NCBI GenBank assembly: GCA_022711655.1
Contig: JAKLEM010000005.1
Location: 4,956 to 68,955 of the forward strand
From: Candidatus Auribacterota bacterium
GTDB taxonomy: Bacteria; Auribacterota; Ancaeobacteria; Ancaeobacterales; Ancaeobacteraceae
Length of the DNA stretch: 64,000 bases
Direction: 5' to 3'
In this document: one piece after another, positions 3,893 through 64,000 of the stretch
Layout of the letters: every line of letters starts with the position of its first letter
Numbering within the stretch: position 1 is the stretch's first letter
Position numbers and translations under genes: made by a program
Notes under the pieces: model-generated
Seen by the model: the letters and a program-made list of their open reading frames with translations, nothing else
What the model was told of the DNA's origin: nothing
Databases searched by the model: none

Positions 3893-5781
3893 GGCACACA
3901 GCTCCTCATCCACAACTCGAGCATGACAAGCGCGAATATCTGATGTCCGAGGTCGTCGCGGCGCATCCGGTGATCGTCGAGAATGGCGCATACCGCGGGA
4001 CGGTTCACATACGCACATATGCGGGCCCCGGGGTCTCGCAGGAGATCGTCGGTGTAACGGCACAGCCCTGTCCGGAACCACTCGTGGACCGGCATCGCGA
4101 ACCCCTGCTTGCGCTGGCGCATGACCAGCTCCGGCAGGGAACCGGCAAACGCTTTTTTAACAATATGCTTGGTCACGCCGTTCTTTATCTTCATGCCGAA
4201 CGGGACCTGGGCGGCGAACTCGACGATGCGATGGTCGAGATAAGGAACGCGCACCTCGAGCGAGTGCGCCATGCTCATCCGGTCGACTTTTTTCAGGTTG
4301 TCGTCGGGCAGATAGGCGGCGGTGTCCACATACAGCATCGCCGACGAATGGTCGACCGCGCCCCGCACTTCGTCGAAATAGCCGCGGATACGGTCGAAAG
4401 AGCAGTAGTCCCCCAGCGCCGCGCGCATGTCGCCGCTATAGAGCGTCCTCCTGGTATCCGCATCGCAGCACGACACCCGCCTGATAAAGCCGTCGCGGTA
4501 ATCGTCGGCGCCGGCATCGGCCGCGCGTATCACTTTTCGCATCAGCGTGCTGCGCCACGGAACAAGCTTGAGCGACCCCGCGACCGCGCGCCTGAACATT
4601 GACGGCAGGAGCCGATAGCGCTCGAGGCGGTGGTTTGTCCGGGTCCAGGAATATCCGGCGAACGATTCGTCGCCGCCGTCGCCGGAGAGCGCCACCGTAA
4701 CCAGCCGCCTGGCGGCCTCCGATACGAGGTACGTCGGCACGAGCGACGAGTCTGCGAACGGCTCGTCGAAATACCCGGCAAGCTTCGGGAGCAGCTCGAC
4801 CATGCGCGGCCGAACGTCGAATTCGTGATGGTCGGTGCGATAACGTTCCGCGACCGCCCTCGCGTAGCGCAGCTCGCTGTAGGGCGAGCCGCCGAAGCCG
4901 ATAGAGAACGTCTTGACCGGCATGGCGACCGCCCGCTGCATCGAGGCGACGACCGTGCTGGAATCGATCCCGCCGCTCAGAAACGCCCCGATCGGCACGT
5001 CGCTGACGAGCTGTTCGCGCACGGCGTCCGACAGAAGCCCGGCGAAACAGGAGGCCAGCTCGTCGTCGTTTGCCCGCGCGTAGGGCGACTCGCGCTGCAT
5101 CTCGTAGTATCGCGACAGCCGCCAGTAGGGCCGCTCCGTCACGCCGCCGTCTTTATAGACAAGCATCCTGCCCGGCTGGAGCGATCGGATATGCCGGTAG
5201 ACGGTATTGGGCCCGGGGATATAGAGGAAGCTGAAATAGTCGTCGATCGACCTCGGGTCTATGTCGCGAGCGACGGCGCCGGACGCCAGTACCGCCTTGA
5301 TCTCGGACCCGAACACGAAGGCGTCGGCGCAGTCGGCATAGTACAGCGGCTTGATCCCCAGGCGGTCCCTCACCAGCACCATCTGATCGTTGCGGCAGTC
5401 GAGCACCGCGATCGCGAACATCCCGCGCAGATGTTCGGGAAAACAGAGCCCGTATTCCTCATAGAGGTGGACGATAACCTCGGTGTCCGTGTTGGTGCGG
5501 AACCGGTGTCCGGAGCGCAGGAGCTCTTCCCGAAGGCCGGCGAAATTATAGATCTCGCCGTTGAACACCACCGCGACGCTTTCGTCCTCGTTGAAGATCG
5601 GCTGATGTCCCGTGACCAGGTCGATCACGGAAAGCCGCTGCATCCCGATCCCGAAACGGGTGCGCGCGTACGCGCCGCTGTCGTCCGGGCCGCGGTGGCG
5701 GATAGTCGCCATCATACGCCTGAGCGTCTCGGCGGGAACCGCGCCGCCGCGTTTGTCTATAAGACCGCAGATACCGCACAT
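3889..5781 (-). CDS. asnB: Asparagine synthase (glutamine-hydrolysing) family amidotransferase, probably polysaccharide-associated
   Basis: N-terminal MCGICG with Ntn Cys2 (start revised to 5781), plus HRGPD, FNGEIYN, FLSGGIDSS, LSGDGGDE and KVDRMSMAHSLEVRVPYLD. Confidence 0.92.
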   Translation of the reverse strand: MCGICGLIDKRGGAVPAETLRRMMATIRHRGPDDSGAYARTRFGIGMQRLSVIDLVTGHQPIFNEDESVAVVFNGEIYNFAGLREELLRSGHRFRTNTDTEVIVHLYEEYGLCFPEHLRGMFAIAVLDCRNDQMVLVRDRLGIKPLYYADCADAFVFGSEIKAVLASGAVARDIDPRSIDDYFSFLYIPGPNTVYRHIRSLQPGRMLVYKDGGVTERPYWRLSRYYEMQRESPYARANDDELASCFAGLLSDAVREQLVSDVPIGAFLSGGIDSSTVVASMQRAVAMPVKTFSIGFGGSPYSELRYARAVAERYRTDHHEFDVRPRMVELLPKLAGYFDEPFADSSLVPTYLVSEAARRLVTVALSGDGGDESFAGYSWTRTNHRLERYRLLPSMFRRAVAGSLKLVPWRSTLMRKVIRAADAGADDYRDGFIRRVSCCDADTRRTLYSGDMRAALGDYCSFDRIRGYFDEVRGAVDHSSAMLYVDTAAYLPDDNLKKVDRMSMAHSLEVRVPYLDHRIVEFAAQVPFGMKIKNGVTKHIVKKAFAGSLPELVMRQRKQGFAMPVHEWFRTGLCRYTDDLLRDPGARICAYVNRPAVCAILDDHRMRRDDLGHQIFALVMLELWMRSCVP

Positions 5782-5855
5782 AATGCACCCCACCGGTGTC
5801 CAGCATCGCCGTACGCAGAAAAAGCCCAGCCATGGCAAGCGCGGCTGACAAGCTG

Positions 5856-8264
5856 TTACTGTCCCTTGCCTATCTCCTCGAGTATCCTGCGCGCCTCATC
5901 CGCGCCGTCGAAACGGCTCGATCTCGACAGCGCATCGCTCAACAGCTCGCGCGCCCTGTCGCGCTCGCCTTTCTTGAAGTACGCCAGCCCCAAATGATAG
6001 ATATAGACCGGGTTCTGCGCTTCGCTGTCGACCGCCTTCCGGAAACGCGCGATCGCCTCGTCGTAGTCCCCTTTTTGCATGAAGACCCATCCCGCGGTGT
6101 CGACGATGCGCGGCAGGCCGTTGCTCTCGTTCTCGGCCCTGACGGCGAGCTCGACCGCCCGGTCGAGCCGGGTGCCGGATTGCGCATACAGCCAGGCGAG
6201 GTTGTTGGCGGCGATGTGGTCGAACTGCAGAGACAGGGCGCTCTCGTAGCGCGCGATCGCCTGGTCGACCTTGCCCAAAGAATGGTAGATCTGCGCGGAG
6301 GTCATGAGGGCCTCGACGTTCTTGGGCTGAATGCGGAGGATCTCCTCGGCCTGCTCGAGCGCGTTGACCTCCATCCCCTTCTCGGCGTACGCCTTCATGA
6401 GATAGAGGCGCGCGGGCACGGACCGCGAGTTGAGGTCGAGCGCTTTCTCGTAAAAAGCCTGCGCGCTGTCTTTCTTTCCGACCGTCGCCAGCACCTTTCC
6501 GGCGACTTCGTAGATGCGCGGGTTCGTCGTGTGGACACGCAGCATCTTGTTGCAGAGCCTGATCGCCTTGTCGTAATTGCGCGTCTTCATGTATATCCCG
6601 ACCAGGGCGTAAAAAGCGTTCACATAATTGCTGTCATGCCCCAGCGCCTCGATATAATACGTCACGGCCTTCTCGAGGTTCTTATTCTTGTGCTCGATCA
6701 CCCCGCGGTAGAAATAGGCGTCAGGCTTCTCCGGAAAATCGAGGATGATACGATCAAGCTGCTCGATAGCGGGGCCGAAATCGCGCTGGGCCGTCACCAC
6801 GCGCGCCGCGTTCAGGCGCGCCTTGTAATTGTTCGGCTGGAGGGCGAGCGCGCGCTCGGCCTCGTGCTGCGCTTTTTTCAGTTCGCCCATCTTGAGATAG
6901 GTACCGACAAGCTCGATATGCGGGTCGAGAACGCGGGAATTGATCCGTATCGCCTCTTTGAACTCTGCAGCCGCCTTCTCATACGAACCCGAGCCTGCGA
7001 GCATCCTTCCGAAGATCAGACGGGTAAGCAGATGGTTCGGGCGCAGCTTGATCGACTGTCCGATATCCTTCATTGCCGCATCGAGCCGGCGCCGCCTGAA
7101 ATTGAATATCGCCCGCATCATAAGCGCGTCGGGATCATCCGGCGCCTGCTTGACAAACGATTCGATATACGGCTCGGCCTCGGTGAGCTTGCCCCGGAAC
7201 ACGAGCATGTTACAGATATTCTTCAGCGCCTTGAGGTAGGCGGGGTCCGCATCGTACGCCTTCTTATGCATCGCCATCGCGTTGTCGAAATCGTTTTTGT
7301 ACGCATAGCAGTCGCCCAGGATCGAATATATGATCGGATTGTTCGGCATGCAGGCGGAGGCCTGGGTGAACAACTCTATCGCCTTGTCATACTCCTTGTC
7401 ATACAGATAGGTGTTCCCGAGCTTGAAATAGACCTCGCCGGACATCTTGTCTTTCTCAAGCGCCCGTTCGTAATGCGCCCGGGCCTTCTTGACATCCTGC
7501 AGGGTGATGCTGATATCGCCCATGAGCACGTTGGCTTCGTATCCCGCCGGGTCATCTTCGTAGACCTTCTGCGCGCTTTTCAGCGCGCCCCTGGCGTCGC
7601 CGGAATAGAGCATCGTCTTTGCCATTGCCAGGTCTCCCGCGACCGCGCCTGCGGCTGGTGCGGCCGCCGCCGGGGCCGGCGTATCGGATGGCTGGTCGGA
7701 GGCCTGCTGTTGAGCGCTCAAGAGCTGCTTTATGGCATTGAATTTCAGCTTGACCGCGGCATCCGACGGATTGAGCAGTACGCACCGGTAGAGCTCCTGC
7801 GCCGCCTCGTGCAGGCGCCCCAGATGGATGTACGTCAGCGCCAGCTGGTAATGGGCTTTGAGGTAACGCGGGGCCAACTGCACGGCGTTCTTGCACTCGA
7901 TGAGGGCCTCATGGTATTTCTCGTCGTCGAAATACGCCTTCGCTCTCTCGTAAAAACGGCCTGCGCGCTCTTCCCTCGTCGGCAATAACCTGTAGACGGC
8001 CGCCGCGGCGCCGGCGATGACCGATCCGCACACCAGCGCGGCGATGCCGTACCGAACGAGGGAGGGCAGCCGCACAAAGCGCGCGCTGACGCCGTTGTAG
8101 ATCAGAATGGCCCCTTTGGCCGCAAAGCCGTACGCCTTTTTCGGGTACCGGGCGACAAGGGACATCCGATGGAGGTGATAATTGACAAAGACCTTAAAAT
8201 GATACGACAACGTACGGGTCGTTCTCCTGGCGTTCTGCCGCATCTTTTCGTATAGTTCGTTCAC
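5856..8264 (-). CDS. Large TPR protein, PrsT-like and exosortase-system associated, with an N-terminal TM anchor
   Basis: One hydrophobic segment (YGIAALVCGSVIAGAAAAVY) is followed by more than 15 TPR-like repeats. C-terminus ANNLAWLYA...DTAGWVF...YHLGLAY is typical of PrsT-like proteins. Adjacent to epsI and the exosortase. Confidence 0.8.
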   Translation of the reverse strand: MNELYEKMRQNARRTTRTLSYHFKVFVNYHLHRMSLVARYPKKAYGFAAKGAILIYNGVSARFVRLPSLVRYGIAALVCGSVIAGAAAAVYRLLPTREERAGRFYERAKAYFDDEKYHEALIECKNAVQLAPRYLKAHYQLALTYIHLGRLHEAAQELYRCVLLNPSDAAVKLKFNAIKQLLSAQQQASDQPSDTPAPAAAAPAAGAVAGDLAMAKTMLYSGDARGALKSAQKVYEDDPAGYEANVLMGDISITLQDVKKARAHYERALEKDKMSGEVYFKLGNTYLYDKEYDKAIELFTQASACMPNNPIIYSILGDCYAYKNDFDNAMAMHKKAYDADPAYLKALKNICNMLVFRGKLTEAEPYIESFVKQAPDDPDALMMRAIFNFRRRRLDAAMKDIGQSIKLRPNHLLTRLIFGRMLAGSGSYEKAAAEFKEAIRINSRVLDPHIELVGTYLKMGELKKAQHEAERALALQPNNYKARLNAARVVTAQRDFGPAIEQLDRIILDFPEKPDAYFYRGVIEHKNKNLEKAVTYYIEALGHDSNYVNAFYALVGIYMKTRNYDKAIRLCNKMLRVHTTNPRIYEVAGKVLATVGKKDSAQAFYEKALDLNSRSVPARLYLMKAYAEKGMEVNALEQAEEILRIQPKNVEALMTSAQIYHSLGKVDQAIARYESALSLQFDHIAANNLAWLYAQSGTRLDRAVELAVRAENESNGLPRIVDTAGWVFMQKGDYDEAIARFRKAVDSEAQNPVYIYHLGLAYFKKGERDRARELLSDALSRSSRFDGADEARRILEEIGKGQ

Positions 8265-8281
8265 GTTGCTCCTCTCAATCG

Positions 8282-8932
8282 TTAGCCCGCTTTTCGGAGG
8301 ATCTCGGTCACATACGTATCGATCTGCCGGGCGAACTGCTCAAGCGCCGCGACTGTTTCTTCGACCGAATCCGACACCACCGGTGACGATATCCTGACGA
8401 CGGTCAGGTCCGACCGCCGGAACACCATCCTGTTGACGATATCGATGAGGCGCTGCCGTATGCCGGGCGTCATCCGGACATCCCGTCTCGTCACCAGGTA
8501 AAAAACCGTGGCCAGCCGCTGGTCGTTCTTCCTCATCAGCATGACACGCGCGCGAAAGGCGCCGCCGTCGTCCGGCGCGATGTCATACTGCTGCTCGATG
8601 CTCCACCCCGACCCGATGTAGCAGTATATCGGGAGGTGGTACTTGTAGTTCGGGGTCTTCTTCACGCTCGGGCAGCGCGTCAGGTACACCGTTACGGGAG
8701 CGCGCCCCGGGCGCTCGTATTCACGGTACAGTATGTCCGACGCGTAGATCCTCTTTGTCAGATCGGGAACCGTATCGTCTTTGATATCGCGCCCTTTCCA
8801 ATCCCCGATCGCGTACGGGATCGTCGAGAAATCGGTGTCGCCGGGGATCCTTTCCGGCACATACGTGATAAACGCCGAGACAAGCGCCGTGATGACCATG
8901 ATAGCGACCAGCGGATAGTACCGTGCTTGCAT
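8282..8932 (-). CDS. epsI: EpsI family exosortase-associated protein
   Basis: N-terminal TM followed by IPYAIGDWKG, REY...VTVY, HLPIYCYIGSGW and VVRISSP. Start revised to MQARYY at 8932. Lies directly downstream of the exosortase. Confidence 0.8.
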   Translation of the reverse strand: MQARYYPLVAIMVITALVSAFITYVPERIPGDTDFSTIPYAIGDWKGRDIKDDTVPDLTKRIYASDILYREYERPGRAPVTVYLTRCPSVKKTPNYKYHLPIYCYIGSGWSIEQQYDIAPDDGGAFRARVMLMRKNDQRLATVFYLVTRRDVRMTPGIRQRLIDIVNRMVFRRSDLTVVRISSPVVSDSVEETVAALEQFARQIDTYVTEILRKAG

Positions 8933-8937
8933 AGCGG

Positions 8938-9792
8938 TCACGCCTTCGTCCTGCTCAACAGATTCATGACAAACTGCACCCCGAACATCCCCGACACGCC
9001 GATGACGATGACAATCGCGGTACCCAGCATCGTATGCAGCATGCCTTGCGCGTATTCCATTCCATATGTGTGCGCGATGATACCGGTCAGCGCGATCCGG
9101 ATCACGTTTGAAAGGACGGCGATCGGTATGGCGGACAGGAAGAGGACGCCGCGGCCGAGCGGTTTTTTCTGAAAGAAATAGGCGAACGCCGCGGCGACGG
9201 CAAGCAGCGATATCAGCGATCGCATGCCGCTGCACGCGTCGACGACCTCCACGCTCGTCTGAGGAAAGAACAGGTTCACCCCTTCGCGGTAGACCGGGAT
9301 GCCCGTCAGCCGTATCAGGTGCGCGGCTATCCTCGAGGCGAATATCTTCATCGGTGAAGAAAACGCCTGATAGGCCGCCTCAGGGATCGGAACGGCGAAG
9401 AGCAGATAGCTGACGGGAAAGATCAGCTCCTTCAGCAGTCCCCATCCGTAGACGAACCATACGGCGCCGGCAAGTATGATGATGAACGATACCTGGCGAA
9501 AATAGATGATACTCGCGGCCGTCCCGACGAAATAGAGCAGGATGCCCGCCAGGAACAACAGGATGTCCTTTGCCGACGGCTGCGGAGGGTCCTGCTGGAG
9601 ATACTTCGTGAGCAAGTCTTTTTTCAGGAAGACGATATACAGCGAAATGAACGGGATCGCCATGCAATGCTGGTTGTTCTCGTTCTTGTAAACGTCTTTG
9701 AGCCAGTCGGGCAGGACCGGCAGCATCAACAGCACCAGCACTGCCAGAAAGATGAACGGCATGTAGCGGCTTATCTTCGGAGCGTTATCCAT
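8938..9792 (-). CDS. epsH: Exosortase (EpsH/Xrt family)
   Basis: Polytopic membrane protein with HCMAIPFISLYIV, YLLFAVPIP, catalytic VVDACSGMRSL, NVIRI and LHT. Start probably MDNAPK at 9792. Confidence 0.9.
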   Translation of the reverse strand: MDNAPKISRYMPFIFLAVLVLLMLPVLPDWLKDVYKNENNQHCMAIPFISLYIVFLKKDLLTKYLQQDPPQPSAKDILLFLAGILLYFVGTAASIIYFRQVSFIIILAGAVWFVYGWGLLKELIFPVSYLLFAVPIPEAAYQAFSSPMKIFASRIAAHLIRLTGIPVYREGVNLFFPQTSVEVVDACSGMRSLISLLAVAAAFAYFFQKKPLGRGVLFLSAIPIAVLSNVIRIALTGIIAHTYGMEYAQGMLHTMLGTAIVIVIGVSGMFGVQFVMNLLSRTKA

Positions 9793-9852
9793 ACTAATCT
9801 TCCTTTCTGACGTCACCAGAACATCTGTTTCGCGGCAGCTGGCGGACCCCGG

Positions 9853-59976: not shown

Positions 59977-62900
59977 TTATGCGGCATCGCCCATCGTACG
60001 GGTATTCTCCTTAATGCGTTGGATCTCGTCGCCAAGGGGCTTGGGCAGCGGCGCTAATGCCCCTTCCGATAGCGCCTCCATCCCGTTCGCGATCGCATCC
60101 AAGGTCATTTCCATCCCGATGAGAACCGAACGGCTGACACGCTTCGCTTTCACCATACGCTCGCATTGGCAACGCTCGAGCGCAAGCCGCGATGCCATGA
60201 CAACACGGTCCACCATTGCCAGTGCCGCCGCGCGGTTCGGGTGATCTTTTGCTTCGCGTATCTTCGTACGCGCCGCCTCTGCGCCGTCGACCAGCCTGTT
60301 GAGCGCTGCCTCATCGCCGTTCCTGATCACGCGCGCCAGGATCGAAAGCGGTATCCCGCGGCCGCGCCGCCCCCGCCATTTTCCCCCTTCTTCCTTCATC
60401 AGCTCGGCAAAACGGCCCGCATCCGCGACCTGGCCGTATATCTCGAGCGCAATGTCCCCGCGCTCCCACACCACCTTGCCCTTATGCGAGAACTCCGATT
60501 CGGCGGTGCGCCATTTGCCGCTCACCATTTCGCCTGCGGCATCGGCCATTGGAGATAGTTTAACCTCGGCTCCCGTCTTCTCTTCCTTCAGCATCGTCGG
60601 GTCGCAGGTGAGCAGATCGCAGCCGGGGACGTCCCGCGCTTTGACCTTTACGATACTCACGAGCTCACTTTCCAGCATGCCGGCAAAGGGCACGGCCGGA
60701 CGTGAAACATGTATCGCGCTACGGCCGTCTGCGGTCGTCCTGACCCGCACCAGCGCGGCACCGGCAAGCGTGTGTTCATCGCCATCGACCAACAGCATCA
60801 GCCGCTGGTTCCGGTCCGTCAGCACGCTCGCGATGCCCCTCAACTTGCCGATAGACCGTCCCCATACATTTACCGATTCATGTCCTTGCGCGACCCAGCG
60901 CACGTGATCGATGTTCGCCGTCTCATACGCCTTCATCGTGTAGGACTTACCCCATTGTTCGTAATACGGCTTATTCCATGCGTCCCAGAACGCCTCCTCA
61001 CCCATCGACGTTCGATCCCAGCCCCTCGCGCGCCGGCCGCCGTACGTGCCCTTCAGCGACTCCGTTATCGCCGCTTTCAATAGTTTCACTTCCACTTTGT
61101 ATTCGCAGTCCTTCATCACCTGCATCAACCCATACATCCAGTTTATCCGGTCCGGCCGTGATTCGTCTTCCATCTCTTCAGTTGGCGCCACCTTGAACTC
61201 ATTTTTCAACGCGTCCCTGTATGCAACGTCAATCTCCCTAGCCATTGCACCGGCGTCCGCGTACTCCCTCTCGCACAGTTTCGCAAACACATCCTTCTGA
61301 GCGTACGATACCACCATCAGCTTCTCGATCGCGAGCAGCGCATCCCGGCCCTTCATCCCTTCCAGCAGCGCCGCGTTGGCATCAAGGAATGCGGATGCCT
61401 CTTCGCCATGCGCCGACAGGTGCGCCAGCGCCGCGTACAGCCGGCCGATCTCCATATCGCGCTCATTCACGTCTTCGATCGTCATCATCTCGCGCAGGAT
61501 CTTCCTGAGCGCCTCCTTCCCCCCGTCGCCTGCACGCCACGATACCAGCGTCAGCGGCAGCAGCAGGAACCCTTCGAAATCACTCAACTCTCCTTCCCAA
61601 TATACCGCCTCGCGCGCCAACGTCGTATTCTCTTCGTATATGGCCGCAAGTGACGCTTCCAACCCCTGTAACGACATCCGCCACAGCCCCGCATCGGGAT
61701 GGCTGTCCAGCTTCGCCGGAATCGCCAGATCTCCGGCCTCGAAGGGGCTTCGTTCCTCGTCTTGCTCCGCCGCCCGGTTGATATCCTTGACGATCTCGAC
61801 CAGGCCCTTGCCCTTCAGTCCGCTCTCCTGATACAGATACGCGACATCGTTCAGGGCCTCTTGTATCCGCTTGTCTCCTTGCGCAAGTTCGCGCAACGGT
61901 TCCCACGCCATCATCTCCCTCCCGACCCCCAGCCACGGATAATTACCCGCAAGCCCGCGCCTCAGCTCGCTCTCCATCTCGTTGTTGCCGAGGTCGTCCA
62001 TCAGGAACCGGTAGATCATGCCTTTGCCGTCGATGATCTGTTTCAGAATCTCGGCTGCCGACGGCGCCGAGAAGACCTTTTTCAGGAACTCGTCGTCCTT
62101 CATCTTCTCAACCGTGCCGGGAGGATATTTCCCCAGCCACGTCACGTACTCCACTTCCTTCTTCCCGCCCCCGATCCGCAGCGGCCGGTACTCGGCCTGG
62201 TAGAGCTCCGAGTAGGTGAACGGCAGTTCGGCGAACATCACCGTATCCGCACCCGTCAGCGATATCCCCGTCCCGCCGCTGTCGATACCCGCCACCAAGA
62301 CCTTTAAATTACTCTCTTCTTTGTTGAATGCGATCTTGTGAGACTCCTGCGCATCTTCGCTTACGCCGCCGTACATCTTCTCCGCTTTGCCCAGTTTTTC
62401 CTTCTTCAGCCGCTCGTCTATCGCCTCCTGCAGCCGCTCGACCATCCAGCGGTGCTTCGCGAAGATCAGCACCTTCTTCCCCGCCTTCACGCGCGCCACC
62501 ACCGCATCGGCCAGCCTCCCTATCAGCGGCGACTCCCCCTTTCCGCCCACCATCTTCGGGTCGGCCATCGCCTGCAGGATCATCTCCAGCTGGACCATCG
62601 GGTTGAGCCCTTCTATGTCGAGCTTCTCGTCCTCTTTCGTCGTCCGCAACGCGTTATACCTTTCCGCCCACCCCTTGAAATCGTCGATCATCGACTTGAT
62701 GATCTCTACCTGTTCTTCGCTCAGGTCGTACATCCCTTCTTTTTGCGGCTCAATGTCGACCCTCTTAGGCCGCCACGGCGTTTTGCCGTCGCCGTGGAGT
62801 TTCTCGTCGTACTCGGCGAATACCTCGCTCTGGCGGCGGCGAAGCATGACTTTTGCGAGTTTCTGCTTCAATACAACCAGTCCGCCGATCTTCACCTCTC

Positions 62901-64000
62901 CCCGCCCGACGATAAAGTCCGTCTTGAACTTCTCGAACGACCCCTCGTATTGATCGAGGTACGACAGGAGCGAATACAAATGCTCCGGCTTGTCGTGATA
63001 CGGCGTCCCCGACAGGAGCCACCTTCTCTGCGGCTTGATCTGACGTATCGCCGCCGCCTGCTGGACGGTGTCAGACGGGCTGTCCGCCTTCTGCACCTCA
63101 TCTATGATCGCCAGCTCGATCCCCGGGAAGAGATCTTTTATTTCCTGGCTCTTCCGGATTTCCTGTGGGTAAATTGCTTGTAGTAATGACTTGTTCAAAT
63201 CCTTTAGTTCCTGATCAGTAACGGCATTCGCATCGCGCAGATGACTATCTAAGAGCAGTTGCATATCGTCTGACAGTAGAGACTTAAGCTCATCAGTAGT
63301 AACCCTTTCAGGAAAATCACGCATTCGTAAAACATCATTAAATGCTGCTATAAATGCTTCTTCTGAAACCGTAGATAACTGCTCAGTCTTTAGACCAAGT
63401 TTTTCAAGAATGATTATATCAGCTTTCTTATTGTCTTTAAGTGAGTTACAAAGCAATTGAGCGTTTAAATCACCCACTAAAAAGTCAGAAGACCCTATTT
63501 CCTTTTCACTCCTGCCCCGCAGGAACTCGTAATTCACAATGAGGTAGCGCGCTTTTCCCATCCGCTTCGCGAGTGCATCAAACATCTTCGCGTCCTTCTC
63601 CGCCTCCTTCAGCTCATCGCTGTCGACGATGCAGACTTCTTTGTCTTTGCGCCCGGTAAAGTCCTTGATGATGCTCGCCCAGGTCCGTTTCACGCGGTTC
63701 GGTGTGACGATCAGGACTCGCTTGAGATTCAGCTTCTCCGCAGCAGCAACCGCCTGGAACGTCTTCCTCATCCCCTGCTCGTCCGCGAGGATCGCCTTGT
63801 CGTGCCCGGCAAGGAACTGCGCTCCCCTTCTCTCGTACTCCAGCATCTTCGTTTCAAGGCCATTTACCTTGAACGACCGCACCTGCGCATAGTGCGCGGC
63901 TACCTGCTCGCGGATACGCTTGATGAGCTCTTTTTGCTCCCTATCCCCGCCGGCCTTCTGCAGTTCTGCAAGGGCCTCCTCGAATGCCTGTCCCTGGTCC
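59977..64000 (-). CDS. Very large SNF2-family helicase/ATPase-domain protein, 5' end outside the window
   Basis: ILADEQGMRKT (motif I variant), IIDEVQ (II), LLSGTP (III), MLRRRQ, LIFAKH, GTGISLTGA (V) and YQAEYRPLRIG (VI). I checked that the frame is open from 63882 to 64000, so the protein is over 1340 aa. The C-terminal ~650 aa are unrecognised. Confidence 0.85.
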   Translation of the reverse strand, partial: DQGQAFEEALAELQKAGGDREQKELIKRIREQVAAHYAQVRSFKVNGLETKMLEYERRGAQFLAGHDKAILADEQGMRKTFQAVAAAEKLNLKRVLIVTPNRVKRTWASIIKDFTGRKDKEVCIVDSDELKEAEKDAKMFDALAKRMGKARYLIVNYEFLRGRSEKEIGSSDFLVGDLNAQLLCNSLKDNKKADIIILEKLGLKTEQLSTVSEEAFIAAFNDVLRMRDFPERVTTDELKSLLSDDMQLLLDSHLRDANAVTDQELKDLNKSLLQAIYPQEIRKSQEIKDLFPGIELAIIDEVQKADSPSDTVQQAAAIRQIKPQRRWLLSGTPYHDKPEHLYSLLSYLDQYEGSFEKFKTDFIVGRGEVKIGGLVVLKQKLAKVMLRRRQSEVFAEYDEKLHGDGKTPWRPKRVDIEPQKEGMYDLSEEQVEIIKSMIDDFKGWAERYNALRTTKEDEKLDIEGLNPMVQLEMILQAMADPKMVGGKGESPLIGRLADAVVARVKAGKKVLIFAKHRWMVERLQEAIDERLKKEKLGKAEKMYGGVSEDAQESHKIAFNKEESNLKVLVAGIDSGGTGISLTGADTVMFAELPFTYSELYQAEYRPLRIGGGKKEVEYVTWLGKYPPGTVEKMKDDEFLKKVFSAPSAAEILKQIIDGKGMIYRFLMDDLGNNEMESELRRGLAGNYPWLGVGREMMAWEPLRELAQGDKRIQEALNDVAYLYQESGLKGKGLVEIVKDINRAAEQDEERSPFEAGDLAIPAKLDSHPDAGLWRMSLQGLEASLAAIYEENTTLAREAVYWEGELSDFEGFLLLPLTLVSWRAGDGGKEALRKILREMMTIEDVNERDMEIGRLYAALAHLSAHGEEASAFLDANAALLEGMKGRDALLAIEKLMVVSYAQKDVFAKLCEREYADAGAMAREIDVAYRDALKNEFKVAPTEEMEDESRPDRINWMYGLMQVMKDCEYKVEVKLLKAAITESLKGTYGGRRARGWDRTSMGEEAFWDAWNKPYYEQWGKSYTMKAYETANIDHVRWVAQGHESVNVWGRSIGKLRGIASVLTDRNQRLMLLVDGDEHTLAGAALVRVRTTADGRSAIHVSRPAVPFAGMLESELVSIVKVKARDVPGCDLLTCDPTMLKEEKTGAEVKLSPMADAAGEMVSGKWRTAESEFSHKGKVVWERGDIALEIYGQVADAGRFAELMKEEGGKWRGRRGRGIPLSILARVIRNGDEAALNRLVDGAEAARTKIREAKDHPNRAAALAMVDRVVMASRLALERCQCERMVKAKRVSRSVLIGMEMTLDAIANGMEALSEGALAPLPKPLGDEIQRIKENTRTMGDAA

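Follow-up and report, generated by a model that had tools for sequence, protein, structure and literature searches.

A probable ISL3-type miniature element read in frame as a predicted helical domain inside a SNF2-type helicase of a Candidatus Auribacterota bacterium

The window analysed here, a stretch of 64,000 nucleotides on contig C45 (JAKLEM010000005.1) of a Candidatus Auribacterota metagenome-assembled genome (MAG; host assembly G000, 56 contigs, 75% complete), contains on its minus strand the C-terminal part of a giant gene for a SNF2-type helicase, and the helicase core encoded by this gene carries an insert of 119 codons. Here it is proposed that the insert is very probably an ISL3-type miniature transposable element with inverted repeats (MITE) together with its target duplication, which transposed in frame into the helicase gene and added a helical domain to the protein.

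The insert, its target-site duplication and the other DNA copies

The 119 codons of the insert (GSSD...SQEI, 63139-63495) sit between the NYEFLR segment and the motif II sequence DEVQ of the helicase. The plus strand reads TATTTCCT at 63139-63146 and again at 63496-63503, with a start-to-start distance of 357 bp (119 codons); the host gene being on the minus strand, the coding-strand reading of this 8-bp repeat is AGGAAATA. The GC content of the insert region is 0.33-0.43 against ~0.58-0.63 in the flanks, and the GC content at third codon positions (GC3) is 0.31 in the insert against 0.76 on either side of it and in the rest of the gene. An AT-rich insert between 8-bp direct repeats 357 bp apart had been described in the initial annotation of the window, made from the sequence alone, and the exact coordinates as well as the drop in GC and GC3 agree with that description.

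The nearest helicase homologues, P0059 and P0060, are 33-36% identical to the window protein and are likewise giant proteins. In these two and in ten more distant SNF2 proteins, the gap from the NYExL segment to motif II measures ~15-25 residues, against ~130 in the window protein. The flanks, when joined in silico, gave ...NYEFLRGRSEKEIKDLFPGIELAIIDEVQ, which is the restored reading that the initial annotation had expected from the removal of one interval. With the joined flanks, two high-scoring segment pairs became one (E = 4e-92 to P0059), and the NYE-to-DE spacing of P0059 was restored exactly. Judged from the aligned sequences, the homologous helicases lack the insert, in line with the initial annotation, which had proposed an alignment with such homologues.

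The closest relative of the insert (P0004, 65% amino acid identity) is carried by the 1313-bp contig L019. The window and L019 have 75% nucleotide identity over 350 bp, the similarity beginning exactly at GGGTCTTCTGAC and ending exactly at CCGGAAGAGCC, with none outside these limits. Four DNA copies of the element were compared, and the duplications around them have a fixed length of 8 bp and a different sequence at each locus: AGGAAATA in the SNF2 helicase of the window (8/8 positions), ATTTTAAG at the intergenic L019 copy (8/8), AGTTAAAT at L017, within a 10,561-codon frame of a MAG labelled Planctomycetales (8/8), and ACAAGTTT/GCAAGTTT at L027, within a 480-aa frame (7/8). The L017 copy, too, forms an island of low GC3 in its host frame. 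The sequence TATTTCCT occurs five times in the window (1.0 expected), and the chance probability of a single 8/8 match is ~2e-5 to 5e-5. The 8-bp direct repeat is a target-site duplication and not a chance match, because the two 8-mers of the window adjoin the exact limits of DNA homology to the other element copies and because the three other copies have 8-mers of their own at the same junctions. The target duplication, which the initial annotation had called apparent, is thereby real; the unit that it had delimited is to be redrawn, from an interval of 357 bp to an element of 349 bp (63147-63495) plus one 8-bp duplication.

Two rival explanations concern the way in which the foreign DNA came to lie in the gene. 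In the first, the domain was gained from a low-GC donor by illegitimate recombination or gene fusion at an 8-bp microhomology, with no transposase involved. The flanking 8-mer is usable as microhomology, a heptamer resembling it (CAGGAAAT) lies 18 bp inside the element, and no transposase gene was found in G000; however, this explanation, which is considered highly improbable, leaves unexplained the different 8-bp duplications at identical termini in three other loci, the inverted-repeat termini common to ISL3 insertion sequences and the intergenic copy. The second rival is an assembly artefact, that is, a chimeric join placing foreign low-GC DNA in the contig, which would be in keeping with the fragmented and incomplete state of the host MAG and with the abrupt break in composition. 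It has an extremely small probability, as an in-frame position, a perfect direct repeat together with inverted repeats and a homologue spacing restored on removal are none of them expected of a chimera, and the same architecture was seen in independent assemblies from other studies.

The L019 element lies between an fba-like gene and a gene for a secreted protein, with flanks 86% and 71% identical to contig C4 of G000, whose locus is syntenic with L019 in both flanking genes and lacks the element. The intergenic copy (L019 150-602) keeps the full open frame, which lacks an ATG upstream of the domain and reaches a stop four codons past it; it was annotated by gene callers as a 114-aa protein starting from an internal GTG.

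ISL3-type ends and a single open frame

Both ends of the element are terminal inverted repeats (Table 1), kept in all four DNA copies; the right end, when reverse-complemented (GGCTCTTCCGGATTTCCTGTGGG), agrees with the left repeat GGGTCTTCTGACTTTTTAGTGGG at 16 of 23 positions. The ends begin GG(C/G)TCTTC and the 8-bp duplications are AT-rich, as in the ISL3 family. In the literature, the ends of ISL3 elements and of a MITE derived from ISL3 start with GGCTCTTCG and are accompanied by direct repeats of 8 nt (PMC11448079), and ISL3-like transposons show AT-rich 8-bp duplications and circular intermediates (PMC5559704). A scan of a metagenome collection with the left-end repeat pattern returned eight loci, seven of which share this terminus, continue into another interior and are insertion-sequence copies. 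Five of these seven come from one metagenome, where four stop at contig ends, as is typical of multicopy repeats. The interior of the insertion sequence codes for a transposase, with matches to DDE_Tnp_ISL3 (PF01610, 3.6e-72) and HTH_Tnp_ISL3 (PF13542, 1.2e-10). The ISL3 ends of L020, L025 and L026 agree with those of the 349-bp element over 24-34 bp, the match of the right end to the ISL3 insertion sequences continuing into GTGGGTAAAT after the right repeat, and the L025 insertion-sequence copy is bordered by a perfect 8-bp duplication, ATTTATAA. No similarity was found between the interiors of the element and of the insertion sequence, nor between the 116-aa peptide of the element and the ISL3 transposase; because the interiors are unrelated, the element is not a simple internal-deletion derivative of the insertion sequence. 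The horizontally acquired mobile protein domain of the initial annotation is in this way borne out as to mobility, with a different carrier: very probably an ISL3-type MITE with terminal inverted repeats and not a protein domain moved by recombination.

Table 1. Features of the host gene and of the insert in the window. Positions are those of the 64,000-nt window.
Feature	Position	Strand	Basis or remark
Host gene, last (C-terminal) 1340 of the 3116 codons of its open frame	59977..64000	(-)	Open reading frame analysis and Pfam
Motif I, DEQGMRKT	63783-63760	(-)	Motif location in the SNF2 core
NYEFLR segment	63534-63517	(-)	Upstream flank of the insert in the host gene
Gene-upstream copy of the target-site duplication AGGAAATA, codes ..K-E-I	63496..63503	(-)	Adjoins the first base of the element, per L019, L017 and L027 homology
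Left terminal inverted repeat GGGTCTTCTGACTTTTTAGTGGG, codes G-S-S-D-F-L-V-G	63473..63495	(-)	Identical or near-identical to left ends of ISL3 copies L020, L025 and L026
Probable non-autonomous ISL3-type element (MITE) of 349 bp, one open frame (116 codons and one base), predicted all-helical domain	63147..63495	(-)	L019 homology, four-copy comparison, AlphaFold2
Right terminal inverted repeat CCCACAGGAAATCCGGAAGAGCC, codes (Y)P-Q-E-I-R-K-S	63147..63169	(-)	Matches right ends of ISL3 insertion sequences
Gene-downstream copy of the target-site duplication AGGAAATA	63139..63146	(-)	Direct repeat
Motif II, DEVQ	63102-63091	(-)	Motif location in the SNF2 core
Motif III, LSGTP	63015-63001	(-)	Motif location in the SNF2 core
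Motif VI, QAEYRPLRIG	62199-62170	(-)	Motif location in the SNF2 core

All four DNA copies are exactly 349 bp long, have 38-40% GC and align without gaps, with a divergence among them of 20-45%. One reading frame contains no stop in any of the four copies, whereas each of the other five contains 3-17 stops, and ~7 would be expected in the open frame at such a composition. The ratio of non-synonymous to synonymous substitution rates (dN/dS) is 0.24-0.63, also when the codons within the repeats are left out, values that are rough because dS is near saturation for most pairs. The element and its duplication add up to a multiple of three (349 + 8 = 357 = 3 x 119), so that insertion never shifts the host frame. 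Like MITEs, the element is short (below ~500 bp), has no transposase gene, and has terminal inverted repeats and a target duplication of fixed length and varying sequence; unlike them, it was not found in multiple copies per genome and is not non-coding, having one full-length open frame with dN/dS below 1.

In L020 (1-190), an ISL3 copy lies inside a ribD-like deaminase gene, whose frame enters the left repeat as ...NKY|GSSDFLVGKK... and then stops. This junction appears to show the route by which the repeat-coded GSSDF motif fuses to host proteins.

The peptide family and its predicted fold

The 119 residues of the insert alone were searched with phmmer against 1.84 billion representative proteins (E <= 1e-3), which returned 57 clusters including the query protein, i.e., 56 others. 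The matches nearly always span residues 1-117 of the insert and lie at many different places within proteins whose lengths range from 64 to 7809 aa. In 35 of the 56 other clusters, the domain is flanked on either side by 50 or more host residues; four of the 56 are short stand-alone open reading frame calls. The hosts are unrelated to each other and include proteins with HEAT plus WG repeats, DUF4330 and many family-less membrane proteins, in MAGs labelled as different phyla. Members down to ~30% identity retain the hydrophobic pattern and an invariant Asn. The conserved motifs at the two ends of the peptide family, GSS(E/D)F..G and IYPxE(I/T)RKS, are the translated inverted repeats. Among 79 species genomes of the host phylum, the domain is present in this genome only, in two copies, and absent from the other 78. 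An ancestral-domain reading was considered and rejected.

An echo of the duplication is found also at the protein level. When the two residues preceding the domain were compared with those following it in 31 further members, 13 of 62 positions agreed, with 4.6 ± 2.0 expected from shuffling (P = 3e-4), and this recurrence of flanking residues is a protein-level trace of the target duplication.

AlphaFold2, run on an alignment of 32 sequences, predicted a compact bundle of short helices with a mean predicted local distance difference test (pLDDT) of 88 and a predicted template modelling score (pTM) of 0.82. The model includes a beta-bridge between residues 12 and 115, by which the two domain ends lie together. 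In a second model, of the 630-residue helicase core, the insert has a pLDDT of 85-97 between low-confidence linkers and keeps the same bridge. The open frame of the element is therewith confidently predicted to code for a folded, all-helical domain of 116 residues. Pfam gave nothing significant for the insert alone or for all 32 aligned members, a sequence profile run against the PDB returned no hit with E < 0.1, and Foldseek found no PDB match at E <= 0.001 (TM-scores 0.2-0.3). All the follow-ups that had been proposed for the insert agree with the initial annotation: besides the alignment of homologous helicases, a protein search with the insert alone returned almost always full-length matches, in unrelated hosts, and structure prediction gave a segment predicted to fold as an independent domain.

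Since inteins typically lie in conserved ATPase cores, as this foreign in-frame segment does, a self-removing element also had to be weighed, either an intein or an intron, whose mature protein or mRNA would lack the segment. However, the segment begins with Gly-Ser-Ser, so that its first residue is Gly and not Cys, Ser or Thr, and it lacks the terminal His-Asn followed by Cys, Ser or Thr (the junction being ...QEI|K). Its 119 residues are predicted to adopt an all-helical fold that is not a HINT domain, and had no Pfam hit, while Rfam gave chance-level hits only in the region, with no intron or other RNA family. The probability of a self-removing element is practically negligible, and the initial annotation had already noted the lack of intein termini.

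The family also bears on the rival that the element is an ordinary non-coding ISL3 MITE, whose open frame and protein "family" would be by-products of DNA conservation and of read-through by gene callers. In its favour, MITEs of this type are widespread and as a rule do not code for protein (PMC11448079), the peptide is best conserved in its two end motifs, which are simply translated inverted repeats, and a few of the family matches are the stand-alone calls given above. Against it stand the same stop-free frame in four copies that are 20-45% divergent in DNA, the absence of indels, the dN/dS range on the interior alone, the hydrophobic pattern and Asn kept by distant members, and the confident fold predicted from the family alignment. 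It is regarded as unlikely, and an element with a coding interior is preferred here.

Within genomes, the copies are few. G000 has one recent copy and one old, GC-adapted copy (contig C53), G079 has one full copy and a partial match, and G080 has one. A DNA-level search of G000 found no copy beyond the query, and fuzzy searches of G000 for the terminal repeats returned nothing beyond the window element; a search for related loci with the narrower family alignment A2 gave two. The source contig of another family member, P0003, was not traced. In the C53 copy, the domain lies at 2449-2802 of a giant frame (G000:C53:1-7173, plus strand; >2390 aa, open at the contig start), with 36% identity to the insert, host-like GC, degraded ends and no duplication, and it may show the appearance of a long-resident element.

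The 10,561-codon frame of L017 (CAYIQK010000004.1; G079:C4) belongs to a 1.7-Mb MAG and is a mosaic in which GC3 varies from 0.22 to 0.80 in 150-bp windows. Several further low-GC islands in it suggest repeated in-frame uptake of foreign modules. At ~11326-12351 of L017, and also in residues ~150-330 of P0005, tandem low-GC repeats of ~60 aa resemble the C-terminal half of the domain (...LSxLEIxRLNRxLIExNYPLExPK...) and are, going by their sequence, probably a related shorter module amplified in tandem.

Proposed origin, host gene and relation to known systems

In the proposed origin, an ISL3 DDE transposase supplied in trans would bind the terminal repeats of ~23-30 bp and place the element into AGGAAATA, an AT-rich 8-mer in the loop that runs from the NYExL segment to motif II, on the surface of RecA lobe 1, whereby 8 bp would be duplicated. 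The element would have landed in the sense orientation with its first base at codon position 1. The helicase would then read straight through it, the sense frame being the sole stop-free frame of the six, and would gain the helical domain of 116 residues. The large GC3 contrast suggests that the window insertion is recent and came from a low-GC donor, and the helicase presumably still works.

Most of the divergence among the copies is probably older than their insertions, because the copies differ by 20-45% while their duplications have decayed at 0-1 of 8 positions. If so, retention of the open frame would be a property of the active lineage itself, and we infer that this lineage has both its open frame and its 3n length as adaptations by which insertions into genes are tolerated. 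A lineage built for read-through, in which the 3n length, the single open frame and the repeat-coded motifs were selected for life in genes as a self-folding surface domain, has in our estimate somewhat better than an even chance of being correct. In a bolder form of this reading, the domain would give its hosts a useful function and spread for that reason.

Several points weigh against the transposition of such an element into the helicase. Searches of G000, G079 and G080 found no ISL3 transposase, a weak negative as these copy-carrying MAGs are incomplete, and because of it mobilisation in these cells is something that we infer. The copy number per genome is only 1-2, unlike that of classical high-copy MITEs. 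For the L019 site, G000 offers no clean empty counterpart, its intergenic DNA having diverged too far. In the full model, the helicase part is of low quality (pLDDT <50 for residues 255-430), lobe 1 being poorly modelled outside the insert because of a shallow alignment, and motif I (Walker A) of the host is atypical, with GMRKT in place of the GLGKT of all aligned homologues. The rough dN/dS values are to be counted with these. Copies may be hidden by the incompleteness of MAGs, from which multicopy insertion sequences are often lost.

The host open frame has 3116 codons on its own contig and extends past the window edge to C45:74282. The protein consists of ~14 N-terminal repeats of ~117 aa, the SNF2-type helicase core and a tail of ~700 aa. 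Pfam assigned SNF2-rel_dom (PF00176, 2.2e-16) and Helicase_C (PF00271, 1.4e-9) to it, and its membership in the SNF2 family is given by the domains of both lobes and by the presence of motifs I, II, III and VI. The unusual Walker A sequence may indicate an impaired ATPase, which would ease tolerance of the insert. The N-terminal repeats occupy the first ~1640 residues (L002 = G000:C45:64000-74608, ~5400-10283, minus strand), with the consensus ...DAWxRSDAxVKxILxAIKDExCGGDANKM...FQFxxxDGxPG...HPDV...LKGxDLxxQFILPEIAGI...ADHTFKELKQDLIDQIGPE.GK.G; they have no Pfam match and were undetected at the DNA level by Tandem Repeats Finder. Directly upstream of the giant frame, outside the window, lies an in-frame TAG (G000:C45:74283-74285, minus strand), in the apparent linker of a further repeat unit (...EDLINNVGS*EAEDWTDSDKAVK...), and the frame is open upstream of it to the contig end. 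This TAG could be a pseudogene break, a read-through codon or the boundary of two adjacent genes.

Gene-dense bacterial genomes offer few harmless landing sites for transposons, and a 3n element that codes for a domain with adjacent ends would be a solution unlike intein splicing. It would be a clear prokaryotic case of transposon-driven domain insertion, in which the whole series can be seen, from the autonomous ISL3 element through its miniature derivative and a copy between genes to fresh in-frame copies and an old one that is GC-adapted. If the read-through lineage is real, ISL3-type MITEs are vehicles of bacterial protein-domain insertion, especially in giant proteins. An uncharacterised "domain family" would also find its explanation, its N- and C-terminal motifs being putative transposase-binding sites, and annotators are warned that a "domain" of this kind in a giant protein may turn out to be mobile DNA. 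For protein engineering, the family would provide a naturally evolved insertable domain and permissive sites such as the SNF2-core loop.

Among known systems, in-frame insertions into unrelated coding genes have been described for the Rickettsia palindromic elements (RPEs; Ogata et al. 2000, as cited in PMC10969869). Similarly to the present element, RPEs are, in that account, small selfish repeats with an open frame for a conserved peptide, lying in frame in unrelated genes and thought to be tolerated at protein surfaces. They are given there as ~100-150 bp long and from Rickettsia only, with no identified transposase partner, whereas the present element has 349 bp, a complete predicted domain of 116 residues, clear inverted repeats, 8-bp duplications, a matching ISL3 insertion sequence and several phylum labels among its carriers. 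The 187-nt ISL3 MITE of Microcystis aeruginosa (PMC11448079) has ends beginning GGCTCTTC(G/C), the imperfect inverted repeats of ISL3, 8-nt direct repeats and occasional genic insertion, all of which it shares with the present element. However, the Microcystis MITE is high-copy, folds into a stem-loop, codes for essentially nothing and interrupts the genes that it enters (PMC11448079), while the present element occurs in few copies, has an open frame conserved over its full length and lengthens the host protein without breaking it. With inteins it shares the tolerated foreign in-frame segment inside a conserved NTPase domain; it differs from them in having no splicing residues and no HINT fold, in staying in the protein and in moving by DNA transposition, not by homing.

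MITEs that bear open reading frames and lie in genes also include ERIC, pneumococcal BOX, Coxiella QMITE1 and Anabaena MITEb/e (PMC10969869, PMC5896051, PMC3184786). As with the present element, copies of these are found inside genes as in-frame translational fusions. To our knowledge, their peptides are short and have no recognised fold and no protein family across phyla, and we know of no description of a 3n length (element plus duplication) with a single open frame as a conserved design. In-frame MITEs are therefore already known, and the novelty here lies in a conserved, foldable domain of 116 residues, the 3n total length, the repeat-coded ends and the spread among unrelated proteins of MAGs with different phylum labels.

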